Shown in pieces: positions 1-31,083 of a stretch of DNA of 33,554 nucleotides (position 1 is the first letter of the stretch; every line of letters starts with the position of its first letter). The stretch lies in the IMG/VR virus record IMGVR_UViG_3300034066_001606. One strand, written 5' to 3'. The notes beneath the pieces were generated by a model, which worked only from the letters and a program-made list of their open reading frames with translations, made no database searches and was not told the DNA's origin. The position numbers were made by a program, and so were the translations under genes. The DNA is from an uncultured virus (IMG/VR IMGVR_UViG_3300034066_001606). Lineage: Duplodnaviria; Heunggongvirae; Uroviricota; Caudoviricetes.

Positions 1-1
1 T

Positions 2-232
2 ATTGGCAATTCATCACCATTATACAAGGGGTTAAGAAATCACCAAAATGGAACTTTCATTAATGGGTACGAAAATTTTGCCGAAGAAGTTTGGGATTTA
101 CTTTATTATCCAATTATAGGTGATACCATAGTTCCACCTCCACCAATAGAAACATTTTTAATTAAAACTTCTGATAACGACTTATTAAATGCCAACCAAC
201 CAGACCCTATTCAAACACATGTACCTTATTAA
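2..232 (+). CDS. 3' end of a gene truncated by the window edge; putative baseplate/structural protein (possibly the N-terminal part of a split gene)
   Basis: Frame 2 is open from position 2 to TAA at 230-232: IGNSSPLYKGLRNHQNGTFINGYENFAEEVWDLLYYPIIGDTIVPPPP...HVPY*. It is absent from the ORF track because there is no start in the window. Function is inferred from context. Confidence 0.7.
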   Translation: MGNSSPLYKGLRNHQNGTFINGYENFAEEVWDLLYYPIIGDTIVPPPPIETFLIKTSDNDLLNANQPDPIQTHVPY

Positions 233-1752
233 AACACAAAAGAAATGGATAAAAAAGTAAACCAATTACCTGTCGCAACTACTCCACTTAGTTTAACTGA
301 CGACCTATTTATTGTCGCAAAATTGCCGAATCCAGGTGAAGCATACTATATTGATTTTGGAACACTTGTGACACAAATATTATTAGCTTCAACAAACAAT
401 GGTTCAAAACTATATTATGTTGATGCAAATTCAACCGTCGTTGGAGATGGTAGTGTACTTAAACCATTTCAAACATTAGATGAGGCTAGGTCAGCTATAA
501 TCGGAACTGGAACACAATCGGCTCCACAATTTACAAATGTGGGTGTTATGGTTGCTTCAGCTTCATACACAACAGCTTTGAATTTATGGATAACTAATAC
601 TAGTTGGATATTTGCCGATGGTGCTATTGTTGTATATACTGGAACTGGACATTTGTTTGATTCTTCAGTGTATCCAAATGAATTAAGTGGTAGATTCATT
701 GTTGCAGGAGGAGCCATATTTAGAACTAATACTGGGGGCATTGTCAGAAATGAAGGTGGCGTAACATCGACAAACTTTGTTGATAATAAAGTTTTTTTAA
801 TTGAAGCATACCAAATGATAAGCACTAAAATTAGTGCAAACCCAGATGATACACCGCTGATATTGCATAACAGAATTACTGGAACTGGATATTCACCAAT
901 ATCAACCTACATACAAATCAGAAGAAATGGCACTATTAGCAGTTACAATCAACATTGTGTGCATGTTATCAATGGTGGTACTTTTTCATTATCCAGTGAA
1001 GAGGGTGGTGAAAATTATTTAATATATGGTTTGAATTCTATAACTGGAGCATATACTGGAGGTGTCGTAGGTGGAAGATGTGTGCTGTACGAAAATACTG
1101 ATGCTACAACTAGAAAGTATTATGCAACTTGTAACATAGCCAACTTCAATGTTATTGGAATAAATTGTTTAAGTGAAATTCACATAGAGGGTAATTTCAA
1201 TAATATTGAACTTAGAAATTTAAGCTTCACCGATGCTGGACCGATACCCACTCACCCAACTTATTGCATAACGATTGGTGATATCACAGCGGTGTATAAT
1301 ATTAATGCTTATTTCATTTTCTTGATAAAAAATTGTAGAGTATTAAGAAACCCTTGTACAGATCCAAATTTGATATTCTTTGTTGGGGCAACAACTACAG
1401 ACCTAGTTGAAATTCAAAATTGCATATTTATGAATGGCTACTTTGTTGATCCAAATATTTTTATTGGTGCTAACAGCAATTTCAACCAACCAATTTCATG
1501 TGTAAATATTTTCAATGGGTTGCTAAATATGGCAAACATTCCAGTTTACAATGACAATGCTGATGCGGTTGCAAATGGCTTACTTCCAGGAGATATTTAC
1601 AACATTAGCGTTAGTGGTGCTAATCAATTAGCAATTGTTGTTTAGATATAGATGTATTTAATAAAAAACGTAAACACAAAAAATGCAACAATATTTTTTA
1701 AATTACCAACTTGAACAATATGTAAACCCAAATCCAACAATGGTAATAGGTG
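116..1752 (+). mobile_element. Candidate integrated/excisable 1630-nt cassette bounded by ATAGGTG direct repeats and 10-nt imperfect inverted repeats
   Basis: ATAGGTG at 116-122 and 1746-1752, both starting on an Ile-Gly codon boundary. TACCATAGTT (124-133) is the 9/10 reverse complement of AACAATGGTA (1736-1745). No recombinase or transposase in the window. Confidence 0.45.
245..1645 (+). CDS. Putative tail fibre/tailspike-like protein (beta-helix-like body)
   Basis: N-terminus MDKKVNQLPVATT..DDLFIV resembles fibre attachment segments. The body is G/N/T/I-rich beta-type sequence. The C-terminal IPVYNDNADAVANGLLPGDIY motif resembles ends of Bacteroidota fibre-like proteins. It lies in the tail module. 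Confidence 0.55.
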   Translation: MDKKVNQLPVATTPLSLTDDLFIVAKLPNPGEAYYIDFGTLVTQILLASTNNGSKLYYVDANSTVVGDGSVLKPFQTLDEARSAIIGTGTQSAPQFTNVGVMVASASYTTALNLWITNTSWIFADGAIVVYTGTGHLFDSSVYPNELSGRFIVAGGAIFRTNTGGIVRNEGGVTSTNFVDNKVFLIEAYQMISTKISANPDDTPLILHNRITGTGYSPISTYIQIRRNGTISSYNQHCVHVINGGTFSLSSEEGGENYLIYGLNSITGAYTGGVVGGRCVLYENTDATTRKYYATCNIANFNVIGINCLSEIHIEGNFNNIELRNLSFTDAGPIPTHPTYCITIGDITAVYNINAYFIFLIKNCRVLRNPCTDPNLIFFVGATTTDLVEIQNCIFMNGYFVDPNIFIGANSNFNQPISCVNIFNGLLNMANIPVYNDNADAVANGLLPGDIYNISVSGANQLAIVV

Positions 1753-2423
1753 GTGTTTCAATTGTTACACAAGATTTGCCAATGGGTTTAGGTCAAGGTA
1801 GGGTAATGCAAATTGAACCTGGAAGTGGGTTTGGATTTGAAAGTGTTGAAATTAGCAAGAAATGGTTTATGAAGGTTGACCCATTTATAGATTACGAAAT
1901 TAGTTTTTGGTTTAAACAAGACGTTGTGACACCTTGTTGGTTTTTAAGGGTTCATGCCTTTGATTGTGGCGATAACGAATTAGATACATACAATATTACC
2001 AATGGTGCTGTAGAAAATACTTTTGTTGGTTACGACCAAGTTATAGTTGAAGCTGAAAATTGGTATTTTGCTCGTTATATTTTGTATGGTGCAAACGAAA
2101 ACATACAATTCGGTCTACAGCCTTATACAAGTCTAAGTGTGGGTAAAAATTTGAAGATGAACAAAAAGACATCACAAATTTTAGTTGATTTAGCAACATT
2201 TTTAACCGATGAATTTAATACAAAAATTTTAATGTACAATTTTAAAGTAAAGCCGTTAAGGACTCCATTTAGTAGAGGTCATGTTCAGGGTAGCGACTTA
2301 CTTGTAAATTGGAGAAAAAACAATAGTGAGAAATTTACCGAAAAGCAAGTTGACGATTTAGCTACAGATTTCTTATTTCCGTACAATACAGCAAACAAAT
2401 CAATCAATTTAATTAAACAATAG
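1683..2423 (+). CDS. Putative baseplate/structural protein (possibly the C-terminal part of a split gene)
   Basis: 246-aa ORF with an A-rich leader and carbohydrate-binding-like beta-sandwich pattern (VDPFIDYEISFWFKQ, WYFARYIL, YNFKVKPL). It sits between tail genes. Confidence 0.55.
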   Translation: MQQYFLNYQLEQYVNPNPTMVIGGVSIVTQDLPMGLGQGRVMQIEPGSGFGFESVEISKKWFMKVDPFIDYEISFWFKQDVVTPCWFLRVHAFDCGDNELDTYNITNGAVENTFVGYDQVIVEAENWYFARYILYGANENIQFGLQPYTSLSVGKNLKMNKKTSQILVDLATFLTDEFNTKILMYNFKVKPLRTPFSRGHVQGSDLLVNWRKNNSEKFTEKQVDDLATDFLFPYNTANKSINLIKQ

Positions 2424-2426
2424 CAC

Positions 2427-4466
2427 ATGTCATATTTAAAAATAAATGAAGAAATTTTTCTAGAAAAAGCCGAGCTCAGCAGATTTGAGCAAGGTTTGCG
2501 TGATAATGGTTTTGTTTTCGATAAGAAAACAGATACGGCAATGTGGGGCATTATTAGAAATAAATTTTACGATCCAAACTTTGATTTTCTTAAAATAGTT
2601 GACACAGCCAATTCAAACAAATTCAGAATTCAAAACGGCTTCGCATTTGATATTGATAGGCTTGTTATAAAGTGGAATAATGGAGATAAGGATATTACCA
2701 TACCAACTTCAAGTCAAAAGTATTGGATAAAAATTTCACACGAATATTCAAACATAGAAGAAGGATATGTTAGCGTTGGTGGCGCAAATAAAAGTTTGAT
2801 AAATGGCGTTGGAACCAAGTTTACAGAAATACTTAGAGGTCAACCCAATTTTCCAAGTAGAATCAAATTCACAAACAGCCAATATTACACATTGGAGTAT
2901 GAAATACTTGAAGTAATTGACGACAACAATGTTTTAGTGCAAGGTATATTTGATACCCTTGAGGCAGATTTGCAATTCATTGTGGTTGGTTCTTTTACTC
3001 CAGGAGTTCAAGTTTTACCATTACATAAAAACATTTTCATGTACGATAGCTGTAAAATGGAAATGATACTTGATAACGGCTTCACTCCACCTACAATATT
3101 CGGTAAGGAATTTATACTAGGTAGCGTTTACTACGATACAAATGGTATATTAATTGAAGACTATAGGTGGAATTTTGTACATGAAGATTTTACACATCGT
3201 AAAGTCGATGATATAAGCGCAATTGATAAATTGGTTGGTATAGAATCTGTTAAGAAAATAGGTGTCCCAAATACAGATAGCTATGTTTATATTGTAAACT
3301 TTGATTTTAAATTCAATATCACAGGTGAGGTTCAAAACAATTTCAACAGCACTATACATATTAACAATGGATATGGTGGTGTTTGGACTGGAACTTCTGA
3401 GTTTGTTGATGGTGATTTTGACAATTGGAGATATTACTACCAAGATGGTAATTATAGCACAATTTTGAAAAGCTATATTAATCAGGGAACCATAGTTTTA
3501 ATTGTTGATAGTGTAAGGTTGGGGAGTGGTGTTGGCACTTGCATTACACCAAATTGTGAAGACATTAAAATATTGATGAAAATGGTAAACGACACTGAAA
3601 CATCCACGTTGTTTACTAGAACTGAATACTTTCCAATTAATTGTACCACTCCAACCATAATGATTAATAAGGATGAGGTAGTTTTTGAAAACCAAATTTT
3701 CCAATTGTATTTTGTTCTTAAAAATCATTTTAAGTATAATAATGAAACTAGGTTTTACGAAAACGAATACTACAATGAATTGGCTTATAGTTTGAGTGGT
3801 GTTTTAACAGACCCAACTAAAACGACAACTAGTTCAAATGTAATTTTGCAAAATACAATTTCAAGTAGTCAAAAATATTTTCCACTTAGATGTCCAATTA
3901 GTTGGTATCCAGAAACTACAGCACAAATTTCAACTTATTTTGATGCAACTGGATTAGGTGTTACAAACAACATATTTACTGGATGGGCAATTTGCAATGG
4001 TCAGAATACGACGCCTGATATGAGAGGTAGAATGATTATTGGTACTGTCAACAACATACAAGGTACAAGTCCGTTGGGTGTTGATGTTGACCCATTGACT
4101 CCTGGAGTTACAAACTTTAGCTTCGGTGATATTGGCGGTAAACAAAAAGTTGCATTGGCAATATCTGAAATGCCTAGCCATGACCATGGAGGTGCAACTG
4201 GAAACGATGGTGGTCATACCCACAACCTCACTGATCCAGGACATACGCATAATATGTTAGGTCAAAATGGTATAGGTGGTTTGGCTAGGGTTAGAACTGG
4301 AAATGGTAACACATCACCGAGCGTAACTACGGATAGTGCGACAACTGGAATTTCAATTGATTCTGTAGCTGACCATGCTCACTCCATAAACGGTCAGGGC
4401 GGTGGCGACAAACATGAAAATTTACCAACTTATATAAGTTTGGTTTGGATAATGAGAATAAACTAA
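2427..4466 (+). CDS. Baseplate/tail-fibre protein with C-terminal tail-collar domain and His-x-His metal-binding tip
   Basis: Collar motif GWAICNGQNTTPDMRGRMIIG, then GG..KVALAISEMPSHDH, HTH, HTH, HAH and HENLPTYISLVWIMR, as in T4 gp10/gp12/gp37-type C-termini. Confidence 0.8.
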   Translation: MSYLKINEEIFLEKAELSRFEQGLRDNGFVFDKKTDTAMWGIIRNKFYDPNFDFLKIVDTANSNKFRIQNGFAFDIDRLVIKWNNGDKDITIPTSSQKYWIKISHEYSNIEEGYVSVGGANKSLINGVGTKFTEILRGQPNFPSRIKFTNSQYYTLEYEILEVIDDNNVLVQGIFDTLEADLQFIVVGSFTPGVQVLPLHKNIFMYDSCKMEMILDNGFTPPTIFGKEFILGSVYYDTNGILIEDYRWNFVHEDFTHRKVDDISAIDKLVGIESVKKIGVPNTDSYVYIVNFDFKFNITGEVQNNFNSTIHINNGYGGVWTGTSEFVDGDFDNWRYYYQDGNYSTILKSYINQGTIVLIVDSVRLGSGVGTCITPNCEDIKILMKMVNDTETSTLFTRTEYFPINCTTPTIMINKDEVVFENQIFQLYFVLKNHFKYNNETRFYENEYYNELAYSLSGVLTDPTKTTTSSNVILQNTISSSQKYFPLRCPISWYPETTAQISTYFDATGLGVTNNIFTGWAICNGQNTTPDMRGRMIIGTVNNIQGTSPLGVDVDPLTPGVTNFSFGDIGGKQKVALAISEMPSHDHGGATGNDGGHTHNLTDPGHTHNMLGQNGIGGLARVRTGNGNTSPSVTTDSATTGISIDSVADHAHSINGQGGGDKHENLPTYISLVWIMRIN

Positions 4467-4478
4467 AAACAATGACAA

Positions 4479-5024
4479 ATGGCAATAGAAATTTATTATT
4501 CTGGTGCAGAAACACCGCTAGGGGTACAAACAGAGGCATTTAATAGCATAGGTGGCTACATTAGCAGTAGTAAAATTCCCAATGGTTCAAGTAAGAATTT
4601 ATTTGGTGACATCAGCTATCTGAACAGACTTAATAAGCAGTCGCAATACAGATTAATAGTTTTAAAGGTAGTTGGTGATACAACCAATATTAGAGTTGGT
4701 ATAATTAACAATGAGCCAATGAGCTACTCCATACAACTAGGTTTTATATCACCCAACAACCAATTAGCTTTTGAAAAGTTGGCTAACAATGCTTCTAAAC
4801 CATTGTATACAGAAATGGAAGGTGTATTGTATATGGATGACATAAACGATATTGTGAATTTGTTTACCATTGGCAACAAAGCAGATGGATCTTATATTGG
4901 GTTGTGGGTAAACAGAAATGTTTTCAAATCACCTACAATAGAAAACCCATGCGAACACTTTTCAGAAATAGAGGCTGACACAAATACAACTAGGGGTTTT
5001 AATATAATAATAAGGCACGACTAG
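4479..5024 (+). CDS. Hypothetical protein, probable virion structural protein
   Basis: 181-aa ORF, last gene of the tail operon before a terminator. Contains the motif NSIGGYISSSKIPN..NLFGDIS. Confidence 0.5.
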   Translation: MAIEIYYSGAETPLGVQTEAFNSIGGYISSSKIPNGSSKNLFGDISYLNRLNKQSQYRLIVLKVVGDTTNIRVGIINNEPMSYSIQLGFISPNNQLAFEKLANNASKPLYTEMEGVLYMDDINDIVNLFTIGNKADGSYIGLWVNRNVFKSPTIENPCEHFSEIEADTNTTRGFNIIIRHD

Positions 5025-5091
5025 TTTAATTTCAAGTCCTCATATTTTAATAATATACCATTTAACATACAAACTATAGCAAACTTAAATT

Positions 5092-5120
5092 TAGAGCCTT
5101 AAAATGGCTCTATTTTTTTT
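5092..5120 (+). terminator. Rho-independent terminator ending the structural module
   Basis: TAGAGCC-ttaaaat-GGCTCTA perfect 7-bp stem followed by T8. Confidence 0.85.
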
Positions 5121-5163
5121 CTTTAATTTTCATTTTTATAGTTGAATTATGTGAATTATTTTA

Positions 5164-5171
5164 GATAGTTA
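5164..5171 (+). promoter_or_regulatory. GAWWGTTA motif (candidate phage promoter)
   Basis: GATAGTTA in the gap upstream of the replication module. The same motif recurs in other intergenic gaps. Confidence 0.5.
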
Positions 5172-5255
5172 CAAGGGGGTAGGGGGATTAGTGCTTCATC
5201 TGCTTCATCAGTGAGAAGAAGTGAATAATAATAGAAGTAATTAAATGAATGTACA

Positions 5256-5495
5256 ATGTTAGATAAAATATTAGTTTGGTTTCCAGAAAAAGGGCTTTTA
5301 AAAGCTGATGGCTTTGATGAAGCAATTATTGGGATAGAAGAAAGTAGCATGAGGTTAATTTATTCTGTATCCAAATGTATTGAAATATTGGAAAAGCAAA
5401 TGAGCAAGGAAGAAGCGGTTGAACATTTTAATTTTAATGTAAGCGGTGCATACGTTGGTGAAAAGACACCAATATGGTGCATTGATAATCTATAA
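5256..5495 (+). CDS. Conserved phage hypothetical protein
   Basis: Pattern ADGFDEAIIG...IYSVSKCIEIL...EEAVEHFNFNVSGAYVGEKTP matches a widespread small phage protein family of unknown function. Confidence 0.7.
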   Translation: MLDKILVWFPEKGLLKADGFDEAIIGIEESSMRLIYSVSKCIEILEKQMSKEEAVEHFNFNVSGAYVGEKTPIWCIDNL

Positions 5496-5497
5496 TT

Positions 5498-5920
5498 ATG
5501 GTATATACAGCTTATTGTGATGGTGCAAGTTCAAAGAATGGTGATGGTGGCATAGGGTGTTTACTTTTTGATGCTGATAACCAAGTTAAAATATTTTCAA
5601 AGTATTACCCGAACACTACCAACAACAGAATGGAATTGACTTCAGCCATTGAAGTTTTAAAAATGGTAAAAAAATGCGACGAAGTTAATCTGTTTTCTGA
5701 CAGCCAATACATAGTTAAGCCATTTACAGAGGGGTGGATAATTGATTGGCTAAATAGAGACCTAGAAGACGTTAAGAATGCTGATTTGTGGGTTTTACTA
5801 CTTGAAGAATACACTAGGTTAAACAAGAAAGTTAATTTTAATTGGGTTAAGGGGCATAGTAATAATTTATTCAACAACATTGTTGACAAATTGGCATTTA
5901 AAGCAAAACAAAATGATTAA
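5498..5920 (+). CDS. rnhA: Ribonuclease HI
   Basis: YCDGA, TTNNRMELT, SDSQY, KNADLW, WVKGH and N..VDKLA give the complete DEDD RNase H motif set. Confidence 0.95.
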   Translation: MVYTAYCDGASSKNGDGGIGCLLFDADNQVKIFSKYYPNTTNNRMELTSAIEVLKMVKKCDEVNLFSDSQYIVKPFTEGWIIDWLNRDLEDVKNADLWVLLLEEYTRLNKKVNFNWVKGHSNNLFNNIVDKLAFKAKQND

Positions 5921-7466
5921 AATAACTAGGTTAAATATAAGAGAGTATGGCTATGAATACACATTTCTATCTGAAAAACTTGCAATAGAAAAAAGTTTAT
6001 CATTTGTGTTTAAGGGTAGTCATTATAGTCCATTAGTTAAGGAAGGTAAATGGGATGGGTATAATAGATATTTTAATAAAAACAATGAATCTTTTTCGGT
6101 AGGTATGTTAAACATAGTTATTGAAAATTTGCAAAATAAAAAAATTGATTTTGGAGTAAACGAAAAAAACTTTGCGGTATCAAATTTAGTTAAAGCCGAC
6201 ATAGGCGACAATATGATGGAGCACCAAAAAGAAGCATTGCTTAAAATATTCAAGGAAAGGTTTGGTATAGTTAAGTCTCCAGTTAGAAGTGGTAAGACTT
6301 ACATATTTAGCGAGTTTTGTAGAATAGCATTAAGTAAAAACAAGAATGAAAGAATATTGTTTATTACAGATGGTGCAAGTTTGTTTGAGCAAAGCCTGAA
6401 CGACATAAATAGTTTCCTATTTAAGCATGGAATTAATGTTGGTGGCATTAGGGGTAAAAGGTTTGAGCAATGTCATGTCGTGGTTGCCACAATACAGACG
6501 TTGGAAGTAATACTGAATGGGAAATCTAGGGGTATTGACAAAATTGAAGATGCTGAAATTAAGAAAATTACACTAAAAGAAAGGAATGCTAGAAAACGAA
6601 TATTGCTTAATTACTTTAGTGGTGTTACTAGTCTATTTGTGGACGAGTGCCACGAGCAAACGAGCACTAGTAGAATTTCAATAATAGAAAAACTACAAAA
6701 GAACCAACTAAACTACAACATATTTTTAAGTGCTACTCCCTTTAAAAGCGAGGATTTGAAGGGTAAATTGAACATGATGCAAATGGGTGGTGATGTAATT
6801 TTTGAAATGGAAGAAGAAGAACTAAAGGAGAGGGGGGTATTAAGTAGGGATGCGGTTTGCTTGATTTACATAAACCACGATTTAAACAAAAATATAGAAA
6901 TAGAAGAGGGCGAAATGTACCGAGCATACGAAAAGCAAGTATTGACACACAACATACACAGAAACATGCTAATTACGACGGTTGTAGAGATGTGTAATCG
7001 GTTTAATTTGAAGACGTTGGTGTTATTTGTAATAAAGCAACATGGTCAGTATTTGAGTAACATGACTGGCTATGAATTCCTAGATGGTAGCTTCAGCATT
7101 AAGCAAAGAATTGCAATTACAGCCAAGTTCCTAAAGAGCATTGGTGGGGTGCTACTTGCAAGTAACATATTTAAGAAAGGCATTACACTACCTGAAGTAG
7201 AAGTTATGATAAATGCTGGAGGTGGCTTAGAAAGGGCAAATGTAACACAGAAAAAAGGAAGAGTGTTAGGGGTTACAGCAACCAAAAACAAAGTGCTTAC
7301 AATAGATTTCTTTGACGACTTTAGGTACTTCAAAAAACATGGGGTTAATAGGGTTAAGGAATACGAGGAAAAAGTACCTAGTGAAAACATATTTGTATTT
7401 GATAGTGCAGATAAAGATTTTTTTGTTGACTTAAGAAACTTTATTGAGGATTGGTTTAATAAGTAA
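5913..7466 (+). CDS. Superfamily 2 DNA helicase (UvsW/XPB-like)
   Basis: Walker A SPVRSGKT, VATIQT, DECH, SAT, KGITLP, QKKGRVL. Start moved to ATG 5913, which overlaps the RNase H stop. Confidence 0.9.
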   Translation: MIKITRLNIREYGYEYTFLSEKLAIEKSLSFVFKGSHYSPLVKEGKWDGYNRYFNKNNESFSVGMLNIVIENLQNKKIDFGVNEKNFAVSNLVKADIGDNMMEHQKEALLKIFKERFGIVKSPVRSGKTYIFSEFCRIALSKNKNERILFITDGASLFEQSLNDINSFLFKHGINVGGIRGKRFEQCHVVVATIQTLEVILNGKSRGIDKIEDAEIKKITLKERNARKRILLNYFSGVTSLFVDECHEQTSTSRISIIEKLQKNQLNYNIFLSATPFKSEDLKGKLNMMQMGGDVIFEMEEEELKERGVLSRDAVCLIYINHDLNKNIEIEEGEMYRAYEKQVLTHNIHRNMLITTVVEMCNRFNLKTLVLFVIKQHGQYLSNMTGYEFLDGSFSIKQRIAITAKFLKSIGGVLLASNIFKKGITLPEVEVMINAGGGLERANVTQKKGRVLGVTATKNKVLTIDFFDDFRYFKKHGVNRVKEYEEKVPSENIFVFDSADKDFFVDLRNFIEDWFNK

Positions 7467-12064: not shown

Positions 12065-13120
12065 ATGGCAAAGAAAACGCCGATTGACGGCAAAACAGCA
12101 AAACGATTAGCTTCATTAGGCATTGAGGCTGAAACAATGGAGGGCGCAAAAACCGAAATTTTGCAAAAATTAAAGGATGCAGACTACGAGGGGTTTGATG
12201 ATGAACCACTTGATGCATTGATTGATATTTACGAGGCAACCTCAGAACCAGAAGAGGTAGCACCAAAAACGGCAACTAAGCCAAAAACGACAACCAAGTC
12301 TAAAGCACAGCCTGAACCAGAAGAAGAGGAAGAAGAAGAGGAAGAAGTAGTTGCACCAAAACCAAAGGCTACGACTAAACCTAAAGCAAAATCACAGCCA
12401 GAAGAAGAGGAAGAAGAAGTAGAGTTGGCTCAGGAAGTGGCTAGTAAAAAACCATTGAAAAGTGTACCGAAGGCTACTACCGAAAAGAAAGCCAAGAACA
12501 GCAATGCGTTTGACAAGGGCAATGCAGAACATGTAAGCATGGTAACAAAGCTTTTACAGAAAGTGTTCCCTAAAGCTGAGTACGCAATTAATGCGATTAC
12601 CTCAGGTGTGAGTGTACGTTTAATGGGTGACAATGTAAAGATTGTGCTTATTAAGTACAACAACATTACATTTGATGGTAAAAACTTCATTGGTGATGTA
12701 AACTTTAAAAAGATTACAAATGTTGAAGAACTGGAGGGTTTAATGCCTGACGACTTTAGCGAAAAAACCGTTGAAAAAGTTGAAGCCAGAGGTTATTGTA
12801 AGGTATGTGATGTAAGCGGTACTGAATTGGTTGAAATGTTTAGCGATGAAGCCTTGTTTGATGCAATTACCAAAAAGGGTAAAAGCATTGACACTAAAAT
12901 GGGTAAGAATCGTGAAAAGCTTTCTGAAAGTTTAGCTAGTACTACTAAGCCAAAGCCGAAACCTAAAGCACAGCCTGAACCAGAAGAAGAGGAAGAGGAA
13001 GAAGTTGAGGAAGTGGTTGCACCAAAGCCAAAGCCTAAAACTAAGCCAAAGCCACAGCCTGAACCAGAAGAAGAGGAAGAAGAAGTGGTTGCACCAAAGC
13101 CAAAAGCTAAGAAGAAGTAA
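12065..13120 (+). CDS. Hypothetical protein with repeated Lys/Pro-rich and poly-Glu blocks around a folded core
   Basis: Four (KP)n-QPE(PE)EEEEE-V(VAPK) units. The globular core spans about aa 145-285. Confidence 0.8.
   Translation: MAKKTPIDGKTAKRLASLGIEAETMEGAKTEILQKLKDADYEGFDDEPLDALIDIYEATSEPEEVAPKTATKPKTTTKSKAQPEPEEEEEEEEEVVAPKPKATTKPKAKSQPEEEEEEVELAQEVASKKPLKSVPKATTEKKAKNSNAFDKGNAEHVSMVTKLLQKVFPKAEYAINAITSGVSVRLMGDNVKIVLIKYNNITFDGKNFIGDVNFKKITNVEELEGLMPDDFSEKTVEKVEARGYCKVCDVSGTELVEMFSDEALFDAITKKGKSIDTKMGKNREKLSESLASTTKPKPKPKAQPEPEEEEEEEVEEVVAPKPKPKTKPKPQPEPEEEEEEVVAPKPKAKKK
12300..13100 (+). repeat. Intragenic direct repeats
   Basis: CTAAAGCACAGCCTGAACCAGAAGAAGAGGAAGA is identical at 12300-12333 and 12963-12996. 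Related copies lie near 12393 and 13053. Confidence 0.9.
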
Positions 13121-19570: not shown

Positions 19571-20782
19571 ATGGCAAACGAATTAAGAAAAAAGTATGCG
19601 TCAACTAGTGTTGACGAACTAAAAAAAGCACGAGATGCTGAAAATTCCGTAATCGGGAACTCTGGTGGTAGAAGTGAATTTTTAAAATTTGTGAATGGTG
19701 TAAACAAATTTAGAATTTACCCAAAGCATGAGGGTGAAAATTTATTTTACAAGATGCGTTCGGTGCATTGGATTACCATTGAAAAAGAGGGTAAGGAACG
19801 TAGAAGAAACGTATGTAATGGTAAAATACATGGTGGATTGAAAAAAGATGTAATTGAAGCCTATGTTGAATTTGTGCAAATGAAATTGGGTGCTAGTACC
19901 AATGCTGATAACCAAGAAAAAGTAAAGGCATTGACTGGCGAAAAAACTGGACTACAAATGAAAACCACATGGATTTGCTATGCCGACAAGCACATGCCTG
20001 ATGATAAGGAATTTGGATTACTTGAAATGAAGAAAACCGTTCGTGATGCAATTATGGATTTAAACATTATTGAAGACGAAGAGGAAGCGTTTACAAGCGA
20101 TGTGTTTACTGACATTGAGGAGGGTAGGTTGGCATTAATTACTTACGATTCAAATGCAAAGAAGGCAAGTGATTACTACAAAACAGCAGTAAGCAAAAAA
20201 GTAGTTCCACTAAGTGATGAAGACCTTGAAGCATTTGATGCAGTTACTCCGTTGTCAAAACTTGAAATGTTTAGCTACAGCAGAAAGGATTTCCAATTAG
20301 CACTTGAGGGTATTGAATATTTTGATAACTTACATGAAATTAACTTGTTTGACGATGAGGACTTCCAAGAAATTGTAGCAAGTATTTCTAAGGGTGTTGG
20401 TGGAAGCGTTGCAACAGATGCAAAGTCTGAAAAGGTTGCACCTAAAGCAAAGCCGAAACCAAAGCCAGAACCTGAGGAAGCCGAGGAAGAAGAGGAAGAA
20501 GAGGTTAAGCCTAAAGCAAAAAGCAAAAAAGCTACCGATAAGTTTGACGAAATGGATAGAAACGAATTAAAGGTTTTTAAAAATGAAAATGAAATAAATG
20601 ATTTTAAAGTTTTTCAAACAACAACGGATGACCAAATTCGTGATGGTTTAAGGGAATGGGAAATGACACAAAATGCTGAGGAAGAAGTTGAAGAAGTTGA
20701 GGAAGTTGAGGAAGAAGAAGAAACCGAAGTAAAGCCTAAAGCCAATTTAAGTGCATTGAGAAAAAAGATGGGTTTAAAGTAA
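19571..20782 (+). CDS. Single-stranded DNA-binding protein (gp32-like) with long charged C-terminal region
   Basis: FLKF..G.NKFRIYP....F.....HW N-terminal pattern of gp32-like SSBs, DVFTDIEEGR, acidic blocks, directly upstream of RecA. Confidence 0.7.
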   Translation: MANELRKKYASTSVDELKKARDAENSVIGNSGGRSEFLKFVNGVNKFRIYPKHEGENLFYKMRSVHWITIEKEGKERRRNVCNGKIHGGLKKDVIEAYVEFVQMKLGASTNADNQEKVKALTGEKTGLQMKTTWICYADKHMPDDKEFGLLEMKKTVRDAIMDLNIIEDEEEAFTSDVFTDIEEGRLALITYDSNAKKASDYYKTAVSKKVVPLSDEDLEAFDAVTPLSKLEMFSYSRKDFQLALEGIEYFDNLHEINLFDDEDFQEIVASISKGVGGSVATDAKSEKVAPKAKPKPKPEPEEAEEEEEEEVKPKAKSKKATDKFDEMDRNELKVFKNENEINDFKVFQTTTDDQIRDGLREWEMTQNAEEEVEEVEEVEEEEETEVKPKANLSALRKKMGLK

Positions 20783-28682: not shown

Positions 28683-29138
28683 ATGGCAAACATAAATAAA
28701 ATAAATGCAGTTAAACAAGAACTAGATAGTTTATGGGAGAGGATTGTGTTTCTACAAGATGAGTTAGGTATTTCAGCACAATTGAATGTAAGGTTGTTCA
28801 ACAAGGGTGGCAATTGTAGTGATATGGATTTTAATTATGTTTCAGACAATGTTGATTTAGATTCGTTGACTAGTTTTGCAAACATGTCACATTCTAATTT
28901 TGCGAATTATGCTGAAACATTGAATGCTTCAAATTCACCTAGTATTGTTTCTTTAGTTAAAATAAATAATTTAGTTTGCGATAAATTAGAAGGCATTCAC
29001 AATGATTCAATATACGTTGTTGATGAAATAAAAATAATAAACAAGGTGAAAATGTATAAATTAAGGGGTATTGATAAAATATTTAGTTCAAAGCATTTCA
29101 TTTCTGTAAATAATCAATTTAAAGAAAAACTAAGTTAA
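28683..29138 (+). CDS. Hypothetical protein
   Basis: 151-aa ORF with an N-terminal coiled coil and an SH3-like C-terminal pattern. Confidence 0.6.
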   Translation: MANINKINAVKQELDSLWERIVFLQDELGISAQLNVRLFNKGGNCSDMDFNYVSDNVDLDSLTSFANMSHSNFANYAETLNASNSPSIVSLVKINNLVCDKLEGIHNDSIYVVDEIKIINKVKMYKLRGIDKIFSSKHFISVNNQFKEKLS

Positions 29139-29839
29139 TGTACGTTACAATACCAATAGATGCATATAACGATTACGAGATAAGGCTGAACACCGATAGA
29201 GTAAGGAGAATACAGAAGATTGTTACAACAGATTTTGTTTTAATATTTCATTTCCATGAACATGTTTTTGATTTTATAAACTATACCCTAGAGGAAGTTG
29301 ATGGGTTTATAAAGCGTGATAATTTTGTGGAATATTATTTTGCCGATGAATTTACATTAGATGCAATGTTGGCTACAATAATGGCTAACATGAATTGTAT
29401 TTACATAGACGATGCAAACAATTATGAAGTAAATTGTGTAAATTTGGATTTGGTTAATAAAATACATAGGGAAAGGGCTGATGATTTTATTTTAAGATTT
29501 CATTTCGGAGATAATCACTACGATACAATAAGGGATAATTTCAACAAAGATGGTTATACTAGGGAAGTAAATTACATAGACTATCTATTTCCAGATGCAA
29601 TTTCACTTAATGCGGTTTATGATGCAATAAGGGATAAGATATATAAAGCTTATGTATTGTCCACTACAGCCACTACAGCAACTAAAATAATAGATAGTAG
29701 GATAAATGGTGTTGTTGAAATAATATTTTGGAATGGTGGTAATGCAATTGAGGGTTGGACACAAACAGGAACTGAGGTTGAATTTACAGATGGAACAACA
29801 TTAATAATAGGGCAAACAATTAAATTAATAATAAGATGA
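29138..29839 (+). CDS. Hypothetical protein with a tandem ~80-aa internal duplication plus a C-terminal beta domain
   Basis: Two units share the pattern D..N.YE...N.D.V..I....DF.L.FHF...D.I...DG...N...Y.F.D...L.A. Confidence 0.7.
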   Translation: MYVTIPIDAYNDYEIRLNTDRVRRIQKIVTTDFVLIFHFHEHVFDFINYTLEEVDGFIKRDNFVEYYFADEFTLDAMLATIMANMNCIYIDDANNYEVNCVNLDLVNKIHRERADDFILRFHFGDNHYDTIRDNFNKDGYTREVNYIDYLFPDAISLNAVYDAIRDKIYKAYVLSTTATTATKIIDSRINGVVEIIFWNGGNAIEGWTQTGTEVEFTDGTTLIIGQTIKLIIR

Positions 29840-31083
29840 TAAGGAAAATTATTTTTATTGCAATAATGGTAATAATTTCATTTAGTGCAATTGGACAAGG
29901 TGTTCAGTTTCAAGGCAATTTTAAAACCACATTGGTAAATAGGGGTTGGCTAAAGAGCGATAGTGGTATTGTTTCATTTCCAGTTGGTGATACAATATTT
30001 CCTTCATGGTTGGGTGCGACTTACAAAAGTGGTTCTTCTGTTTTGAAGAGTGGGTTGCCATACTACTACGATGGTTCTATGTGGAAGCCTTTTGGTGGTG
30101 GTTCTGGAAGTAGTTTTGATACAACATATATTTATCAAGCGTTAACAGACACCGCTAATAATATTAGAAGCGATATAGGGGATAGTTTAGCCTTGAAGGT
30201 GTATCGTTCTGATAGCAATGTGGTTTATTCCACACCTACTCAATTGGCGACAAAGCAACCTCTTACAAATAGCCTTTCAACAACTTCAATAACATTGGAC
30301 GATACACAGCCATTTTATGAATTGACGGGTGCTACAAACAACAAGGTGGCATTTAAAACGATAGGCAAATTGCTCACAACAGATTTACAAGTAAAGGCAG
30401 GGTTTCAATACCATAACGATTTCATTAATCCAGTAACGACTACGACATCTGATGGTGCAGGAGTAATATTGGTTGCAAACGGAAGTGGTGCAACTTGTAC
30501 GACAGTCTCGACTCCAGCCACAAATAGAGTTGGTATAGCGCAAACAACTACTGGAACAACTTCAACTGGAAGGGTTGCAATTGCAACAGCAAACGCTCCA
30601 GTAAGGTTGTCGGGTGGTGCGTGGTTGTATACAGCAGATGTGAAAGTGGTTCAACTATCTACATCTACAGAACGATTTGCCTTACTTATCGGATTTTTGG
30701 GAAATTATACTACGGTGAATCAAACGAATGCCGTTTACTTTCTATACGATCAAAGTGGGGTATCGACAAGTAGTAGTGCGTCCGCAAATTGGCAATGTGC
30801 AACTGTCTCAAATTCGTCAAGGACAATAACTAACACTACTGGAGTAGCGGTTTCAGCTGGAACATTTGTTAGGCTTCAAATACTTGTAAATTCAGATGGA
30901 ACAAGTGTTGGATTTTACATAAATGGAACTTTAGTTAAAACAGAAACTAATACTATACCGACAGCTGCAAATAGGGAAGTTGGATTTGGTGCTTTGACTG
31001 TGAAATCAGCTCATGTATCTGTTCCTGCTCTTGTGCAATACGATTTTATAAACATAAATTGTGAATTTACAACCGAAAGATAA
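29836..31083 (+). CDS. Signal-peptide-bearing fibre/lectin-like protein (ConA/LamG-like C-terminal domain)
   Basis: MIRKIIFIAIMVIISFSAIG|Q signal peptide. T/S/G-rich. The C-terminal beta-sandwich pattern is FVRLQILVNSDGTSVGFYINGTLV...TNTIP...VQYDFI. Confidence 0.6.
   Translation: MIRKIIFIAIMVIISFSAIGQGVQFQGNFKTTLVNRGWLKSDSGIVSFPVGDTIFPSWLGATYKSGSSVLKSGLPYYYDGSMWKPFGGGSGSSFDTTYIYQALTDTANNIRSDIGDSLALKVYRSDSNVVYSTPTQLATKQPLTNSLSTTSITLDDTQPFYELTGATNNKVAFKTIGKLLTTDLQVKAGFQYHNDFINPVTTTTSDGAGVILVANGSGATCTTVSTPATNRVGIAQTTTGTTSTGRVAIATANAPVRLSGGAWLYTADVKVVQLSTSTERFALLIGFLGNYTTVNQTNAVYFLYDQSGVSTSSSASANWQCATVSNSSRTITNTTGVAVSAGTFVRLQILVNSDGTSVGFYINGTLVKTETNTIPTAANREVGFGALTVKSAHVSVPALVQYDFININCEFTTER

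Follow-up and report, generated by a model that had tools for sequence, protein, structure and literature searches.

The repeat and the reading frames that it joins

The locus described here raises the question of whether the DNA between two copies of a short direct repeat is a removable cassette, or whether it marks the place at which an essential structural gene was broken long ago. The window (the whole stretch analysed, 33,554 nucleotides of the uncultured lake-water virus IMGVR_UViG_3300034066_001606) carries ATAGGTG on the plus strand at 116..122 and 1746..1752, each copy being read as Ile-Gly in its own open reading frame (ORF). These positions and readings, and the coordinates of the ORFs at 2-232, 245-1645 and 1683-2423, agreed with an initial annotation of the sequence, as did two constructions made in silico: removal of 1630 nt gave an open, in-frame fusion of ORFs 2-232 and 1683-2423, and joining of the ends of the removed piece gave a frame of 59 amino acids. 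The annotation had proposed a two-gene receptor-binding cassette, integrated Campbell-style or removable at the DNA or RNA level, which could act as a host-range switch or as an unusual splicing system, with the caveat that the direct repeat alone was weak evidence.

The caveat was well founded. ATAGGTG occurs 10 times in the window against 4.2 expected, which is little above chance, and no similarity beyond the 7-nt core, and hence no arms, was found around the two copies. The piece does have a direct repeat at both ends and its excision in silico does restore the target; an in-frame repeat of at least 7 nt nevertheless arose in 36% of 2000 synonymous recodings of both zones with the protein sequences fixed, and in random coding zones at rates from 2.4% (24 by 24 nt) to 19% (48 by 78 nt). 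ATA accounts for 229 of 458 isoleucine codons and GGT for 208 of 345 glycine codons. The repeat is best read as an Ile-Gly pair retained on both halves of the gene and spelled in the commonest codons, its present identity being due to protein constraint and codon bias. An AG/GT-like boundary is visible in the sequence, and the GC content of the insert resembles that of its flanks.

Two halves of one baseplate gene

ORF 2..232 (plus strand) is the 3' end of a baseplate wedge-2-like gene with 54 homologues; its full ORF was recovered from the overlapping IMG/VR record L003, and it encodes 457 amino acids from a start upstream of the window (L004:8001-9374). The gene follows a Baseplate_J gene, with two accessory genes between them. 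ORF 1683..2423 (plus strand; 247 homologues at E<=0.001) encodes 246 amino acids comprising most of a jelly-roll domain like those of carbohydrate-binding modules (CBM) and the conserved C-terminus of the wedge protein. Among 199 proteins fetched, 154 matched both halves, 20 the N-half only, 24 the C-half only and 1 neither, some of the single-half matches probably being fragments. The claim of the initial annotation that related proteins run continuously across the junction is therefore true, and the homologues are not normally separate genes; the 555-amino acid protein XQU63073.1 of Chryseobacterium phage MA9V-3 likewise matches both halves (26% and 23%). A word-seeded search for longer proteins containing the C-half gave no match, which is to be read as a miss since another search gave many homologues.

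A profile of the junction was built from 99 continuous homologues. On it the in silico join aligned as a single domain, interrupted at Ile-Gly by a gap of two columns, and scored 66.3 bits; the separate halves scored 34.0 and 28.6 bits, and the 59-amino acid circle frame -1.0 bits. The breakpoint thus lies at, or within a few residues of, Ile-Gly: homology of the N-half to continuous relatives stops at the first copy of the repeat, and confident homology and confident folding of the C-half begin at the second. The join forms a loop of 10 residues, a length also found in 9 of the 99 continuous homologues, which makes the fused protein credible; the loop is of 12 residues in 71 of the 99 and of 15 in P0009, the closest continuous homologue, and by this comparison the join is not uniquely exact. 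Continuous homologues natively have a glycine at these places. On homology, ORFs 2-232 and 1683-2423 are the halves of one baseplate-wedge-like gene, each with its own start, stop and added terminal peptide, all of which are kept in relatives.

The predicted structure of the continuous protein P0009 (pLDDT 86.5) had as its top PDB match in Foldseek a 503-residue chain of 9b45, the baseplate of phage Pa193 (E 9.9e-6), taken from its length as gp46. Because the TM-score was only 0.17-0.20, the assignment to wedge 2 leans on gene order; the gene stands after Baseplate_J and before a tail fibre gene, the position of wedge 2 (gp7/gpI-like) proteins. The downstream context is conserved: the tail-fibre-like gene at 2427..4466 (plus strand; matched to PHROGs tail fibre at E 2e-25) comes after the wedge gene at most loci. 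The region is syntenic with that of MA9V-3 (PV245944), a cultured contractile-tailed phage (PMC13120357), and a Bacteroidota host is inferred from this synteny.

Residues 400-595 (approximately) of the P0009 model form the CBM-like jelly-roll (Z 11-12, rmsd about 3, about 145 residues aligned), matches to which took up the rows of the VIA comparison, and the break falls about 20-25 residues inside this domain. The model of the C-half (pLDDT 87, confident from residue 21 onwards) also gave matches to CBM-like folds (Z 9-10; about 130 residues aligned at an rmsd of about 3), which begin at its residues 5-8 against CBM N-termini.

Tail, spike, signal and leader

Four elements lie between the two copies of the repeat. 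The N-half continues past the repeat into a C-terminal tail of 36 residues and a stop (122..232, plus strand); homologous tails of 28-38 amino acids were found in 9 relatives and are absent from P0007, P0012 and L005. A 466-amino acid, beta-helix, tail-spike-like accessory protein is encoded at 245..1645 (plus strand) and is the cargo of the slot between the halves. Its structural look-alikes in the Atlas had TM-scores of 0.57-0.63, 9 of 10 lying in beta-helix-type clusters; it matches phrog_15051, of unknown function (E 6.7e-7), and has one homologue, at 69%. The insert had no Pfam match, and its beta-helix-like product does not resemble a mobile endonuclease. The spike would be a receptor-binding part of the virion. 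Its N-terminus had no useful match in phages, matches in the Atlas stayed below 0.9, and PDB sequences gave none.

An expression-signal-like element occupies 1650..1682 (plus strand), immediately before the ATG of the C-half. Some 14.6 kb upstream, a near-identical copy of about 30 nt (G002:C1:20213-20233, L070) recurs before the ATG of a 123-amino acid gene; the relative G003 was found to have no such element, and a promoter scan gave chance-level results only. The element is a candidate phage late promoter or initiation signal, and its position fits independent expression of the C-half; it would equally serve a circle. The C-half itself opens with a leader of 21 residues (1683..1745, plus strand), which is kept both with and without cargo (P0055, P0201, L005, L023). 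Residues 1-20 of the leader mostly had a pLDDT below 50 in the C-half model and are not confidently folded, and comparison of the leader with the N-terminal segment that the C-half has lost gave p values of 0.29-0.78 for continuous homologues and 0.03-0.22 within the clade.

Two roles were considered for the tail. It may dock the adjacent spike, a suggestion that is made tentatively on the grounds that L005 and L023 lack both tail and cargo and that wedge-2 proteins bear fibre attachment sites; gp46 of Pa193, for example, carries a fibre attachment loop (PMC11456595). Docking of the head fibres of crAss001 on peptides of this kind was not confirmed by the text consulted (PMC10172136), and the docking idea consequently rests on inference. 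A complex prediction for the end of the N-half with three copies of the spike N-terminus scored 0.02. Somewhat less probably, the tail aids assembly of the two halves, as in the NrdA protein of phage Aeh1; the tail is absent in L005 and L023 and is therefore not universally required for assembly.

Continuous wedge genes with short patterned tails (D/N-F repeats or F-L-L-Q-N-S repeats), directly followed by fibre-like genes, were seen at L013:8001-11992, L028:425-4814 and L040:7959-10462. These are possible docking pairs, although pairing of tails with fibre starts over 431 ORFs gave no statistical support: the window alone scored, and L040 had an E value of 4.2.

Age and spread of the split

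A tree was built from 38 of 41 intended N-halves, the outgroups P0072, P0074 and P0083 being left out as trimming by motif failed for them. The window falls in a clade of 14 rows (support 100/97), to which the continuous P0009 is sister. Ten rows are tailed (36-78% identical to the N-half of the window for the other tailed members), 3 are tail-less and end right after YPII, and 1 is continuous (P0056); 13 of the 14 are thus split, and none of the 14 is a precise rejoin. P0056 retains a leader-like segment, which outscored all 9016 background windows and every other non-leader match in the fetched proteins, and so it is not the product of a precise excision.

L005 and L023 have neither tail nor fibre cargo, and are split by 9 and 8 nt after the YPII stop; one such cargo-less relative has three in-frame stops at the gap. 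Both have the same C-half leader and carry the 7-mer on the C side only, the N-side repeat being absent. P0003 (60% identical, and sister of the window plus P0002) has the tail without Ile-Gly, which is otherwise present in the tail-bearing N-halves (9 of 10) and in all five aligned leader-bearing C-halves; on these counts a short duplication at the original insertion is possible. Among the ten tailed N-halves, the cargo, C-half and repeats were observed in DNA for the window alone. The longest contig is of length 14,942 both for P0200, a cluster mate of P0002, and for the spike homologue P0199, which hints that the two lie together.

A separate clade, made up of the six rows L006, L007 and P0018-21, has a split close to this site. 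Two unrelated genes lie within it in L006 and L007, and this second clade has no repeat motif at its split. Scans of GTDB gave no relatives, and no additional cargo-bearing split locus came out of further scans of viral sequences.

In many of 23 loci that were tabulated, accessory genes also flank the wedge gene on one side or the other. Upstream of the window (L004:6221-7988), the wedge gene is separated from Baseplate_J by a 107-amino acid gene and a 478-amino acid fibre-like gene; pairs of this kind, but with other long partners, are found in L006, L007, L009, L010, L015, L021 and L026 and are absent from L001, L005, L023 and L040, so that by gene content the gap between Baseplate_J and wedge is a second variable slot. 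The family varies in other ways. The N-halves of P0013, P0015, P0016 and P0017 run about 25 residues past the break and then carry a different C-terminal domain of about 130 amino acids. A common insert of about 65 residues near position 290 is shared by the N-halves of P0002, P0007, P0012, P0200, L005 and L023, and its occurrence on separate branches (P0002 as against P0007/P0012) suggests exchange of a sub-domain. At L011:7980-9615 a wedge homologue is broken near its C-terminus by a frameshift or stop, at a site that differs from the split in the window.

Gene order in assemblies, junction forms and recombination genes

The order of genes was confirmed. IMG/VR record L003 is 99.97% identical to positions 1-7255 of the window and has the same order, and contigs from four sequencing runs bridge both repeats: single contigs of runs X1 and X2 span the two, and X4 bridges each with separate contigs. 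Runs X1-X3 are possibly the source runs of the window; X4 was not flagged as such. Misassembly, which the initial annotation had left as an option, can be set aside on this evidence. Depth was flat across the region in the contigs of X1-X4. No joint of an excised or circular form was found at either repeat in these contigs, which represent 4 of 20 runs that carry the sequence and, as contigs, drop rare variants; junction 21-mers were likewise found in 0 of 65 loci, only one record of the phage of the window being among them.

No tyrosine (PF00589) or serine (PF00239) recombinase was detected in any of four records, including the upstream one and a 90%-complete relative, nor in the element or among the plus-strand ORFs of the window that were scanned, with about 40% of the genome lying outside the search; the recombinase that the initial annotation suggested looking for elsewhere in the genome was not found within this scope. 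No intron family was found in Rfam for positions 1-3000 of the window at E<=1, apart from one unrelated chance match.

RecA and RuvC-like genes are present, within a replication block at 5498-28659 that includes RNase H, helicases, a primase, a thymidylate-synthase-like gene, DNA polymerase III alpha, an HD-domain protein, RecA, a Rad50/Mre11-like pair, RuvC and a sigma-70-like gene. Base modification may be indicated by the presence of the thymidylate-synthase-like gene and the HD gene. Elsewhere in the window, 12065-13120 and 19571-20782 share Lys/Pro and Glu-run repeats that are alike in DNA and lie 7.4 kb apart, and at 29138-31083 a lone 415-amino acid gene whose C-terminal domain is SO2946-like (E 2.5e-18), together with a 233-amino acid partner, stands far from the structural module.

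Origin of the split

We favour, with a probability of about 0.8, an old insertional fission within the CBM-like domain, leaving a fixed split, two reassembling proteins and a variable accessory slot. In the distant past an insertion would have broken the essential wedge-2-like gene of a Bacteroidota-type myophage about 20-25 residues into this domain, and would have given the N-half a stop and a short added tail, and the C-half a start, a leader and an upstream signal. The two halves are presumably made separately and assemble non-covalently in the baseplate wedge. The gap would then have served as a slot for accessory virion genes, holding one beta-helix spike in the window, nothing in L005 and L023, and two unrelated genes in L006 and L007; such genes would come and go in the course of evolution and would not be switched from one infection to the next. 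The order of tail and stop, cargo, start and leader would follow because a viable insertion into an essential gene needs both a stop and a start.

How the insertion arose can be read in other ways. The element may have entered as a small circle by Campbell-type or microhomology-mediated integration at the Ile-Gly codons, and now be fixed and inert, a reading that differs from the favoured one in origin only and is compatible with it. The break at Ile-Gly on both halves, the distribution of that pair over tailed N-halves and leader-bearing C-halves, which suits a duplicated core, and the order of tail, cargo and leader speak for such an event; it is made unlikely by the ordinary origin of the 7-nt identity in protein constraint and codon bias, the native glycine of the continuous homologues, the failure of the circle frame on the junction profile, and the second clade, whose split lies close by and lacks a repeat motif. 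Among the proteins fetched, none had leader and tail joined, in searches that were not aimed at such a protein. A further possibility is that the start of the CBM-like domain was partially duplicated, the leader, a diverged copy of the aromatic-D-L-x-x-Y segment that stayed on the N-half, then completing the fold of the C-half. The leader motif Y-x-L-E-x-Y aligns with that segment on the N-half, the structural matches of the C-half begin before its confidently folded part, and P0013-type proteins retain some 59 columns of the junction profile counted from its start, which takes them beyond the break. The profile scores were not significant or marginal, however, the leader is poorly modelled, and fold alignment put continuous residues in those columns; we regard the duplication as possible at odds somewhat below even.

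Readings in which the piece still moves fare much worse, and the removable cassette of the initial annotation finds no support, since the piece is not a unit: in L005 and L023 the leader occurs without tail, fibre or N-side repeat, and P0003 has a tail without Ile-Gly. Active excision of the 1630-nt DNA, by a site-specific or RecA-independent reaction at the 7-nt core, would produce virions with either a spike or a fused wedge. The in-frame fusion does resemble natural homologues, the signal-like element, which lies at the piece's 3' end, would drive expression of the circle frame, and RecA and RuvC-like genes are at hand; against this stand the lack of precise rejoins in the clade, cargo-less relatives that are nevertheless split, a core without arms and without a detected tyrosine or serine recombinase in the sequences searched, and the ten copies of ATAGGTG in 33.5 kb, which make it a poor excision target. 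Such excision is highly improbable. Removal at the RNA level, by self-splicing or an unknown system, to give a fused wedge mRNA and a circular spike-coding RNA would agree with an in-frame join at a short direct repeat and with the AG/GT-like boundary, and is more improbable still: Rfam gave no intron family, the piece is almost wholly coding, with about 50 nt intergenic and hence little room for a ribozyme, and relatives without the piece are viable as split genes, one of them with three in-frame stops at the gap. A host-range switch or splicing system is accordingly not supported. That low-frequency excision of the piece made up of tail, spike and leader still occurs, in DNA or RNA, at the 7-nt core and by no recognisable recombinase or ribozyme, is very unlikely; if it were true, one phage would have both a split wedge with spike and a fused wedge without it, and a circle expressing the 59-amino acid frame as an adaptor together with the spike. 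An assembly artefact has a negligible probability given the bridging contigs, the agreement of L003 and the homologous tails and leaders of relatives.

Old insertional fission would give a natural series at one baseplate locus, in which the gene is uninterrupted, broken with a tail and a spike in place, broken with an empty gap, broken around other genes, or apparently re-fused. The series shows how an essential virion gene tolerates fission, and marks a site at which lake phages would exchange accessory adhesion genes, together with a candidate docking or assembly peptide. A viable old insertion is expected to look like a permuted insert flanked by a short repeat, and such an appearance does not by itself indicate excision.

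Comparison with known systems

No published account of a split wedge gene was found in the openly licensed literature. Within baseplates, the closest continuous counterpart is XQU63073.1 of MA9V-3, which lies in a syntenic region but is one gene, the accessory genes following it and not interrupting it. Pa193 gp46 (PDB 9b45; PMC11456595) shares the order Baseplate_J, wedge and tail fibre; the family of the window differs in having a CBM-like domain, here in two genes, and the structural match is distant (TM 0.17-0.20). The 'evolved Dit' proteins are, in the descriptions available, likewise core baseplate proteins with a CBM-like domain, but belong to siphophages and are single polypeptides, whereas the wedge of the window is that of a myophage and is split inside the module.

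Recombinase-driven tail-fibre switches such as Gin of Mu and Cin of P1 act by inversion between inverted repeats. With these and with elements bounded by attL and attR the window shares a short direct repeat flanking a fibre gene and a possible effect on host range; it differs in that no recombinase, arms, conserved repeat or precise empty site was found. Among the relatives, L005 and L023 are empty yet split, and P0003 lacks Ile-Gly.

The nearest likeness is to the 'genes in pieces' of Aeromonas phage Aeh1, in which the essential nrdA gene is broken by an inserted gene into NrdA-a and NrdA-b, with new tails, C- and N-terminal, borne by the halves, and function returns with no splicing of RNA or protein and no rearrangement of the DNA (PMC3045599). 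Both cases comprise an essential gene split by an insert, with added terminal peptides. In Aeh1, by that account, the insert is a homing endonuclease gene (mobE); here a structural baseplate gene carries a spike-like insert, the content of the slot varies, the N-half tail is dispensable in some relatives, and the role of the tails may differ. The locus fails the tests of a conserved core and a precise empty site that an excisable element should pass, and works like the Aeh1 'genes in pieces' without being a homing-endonuclease insertion.
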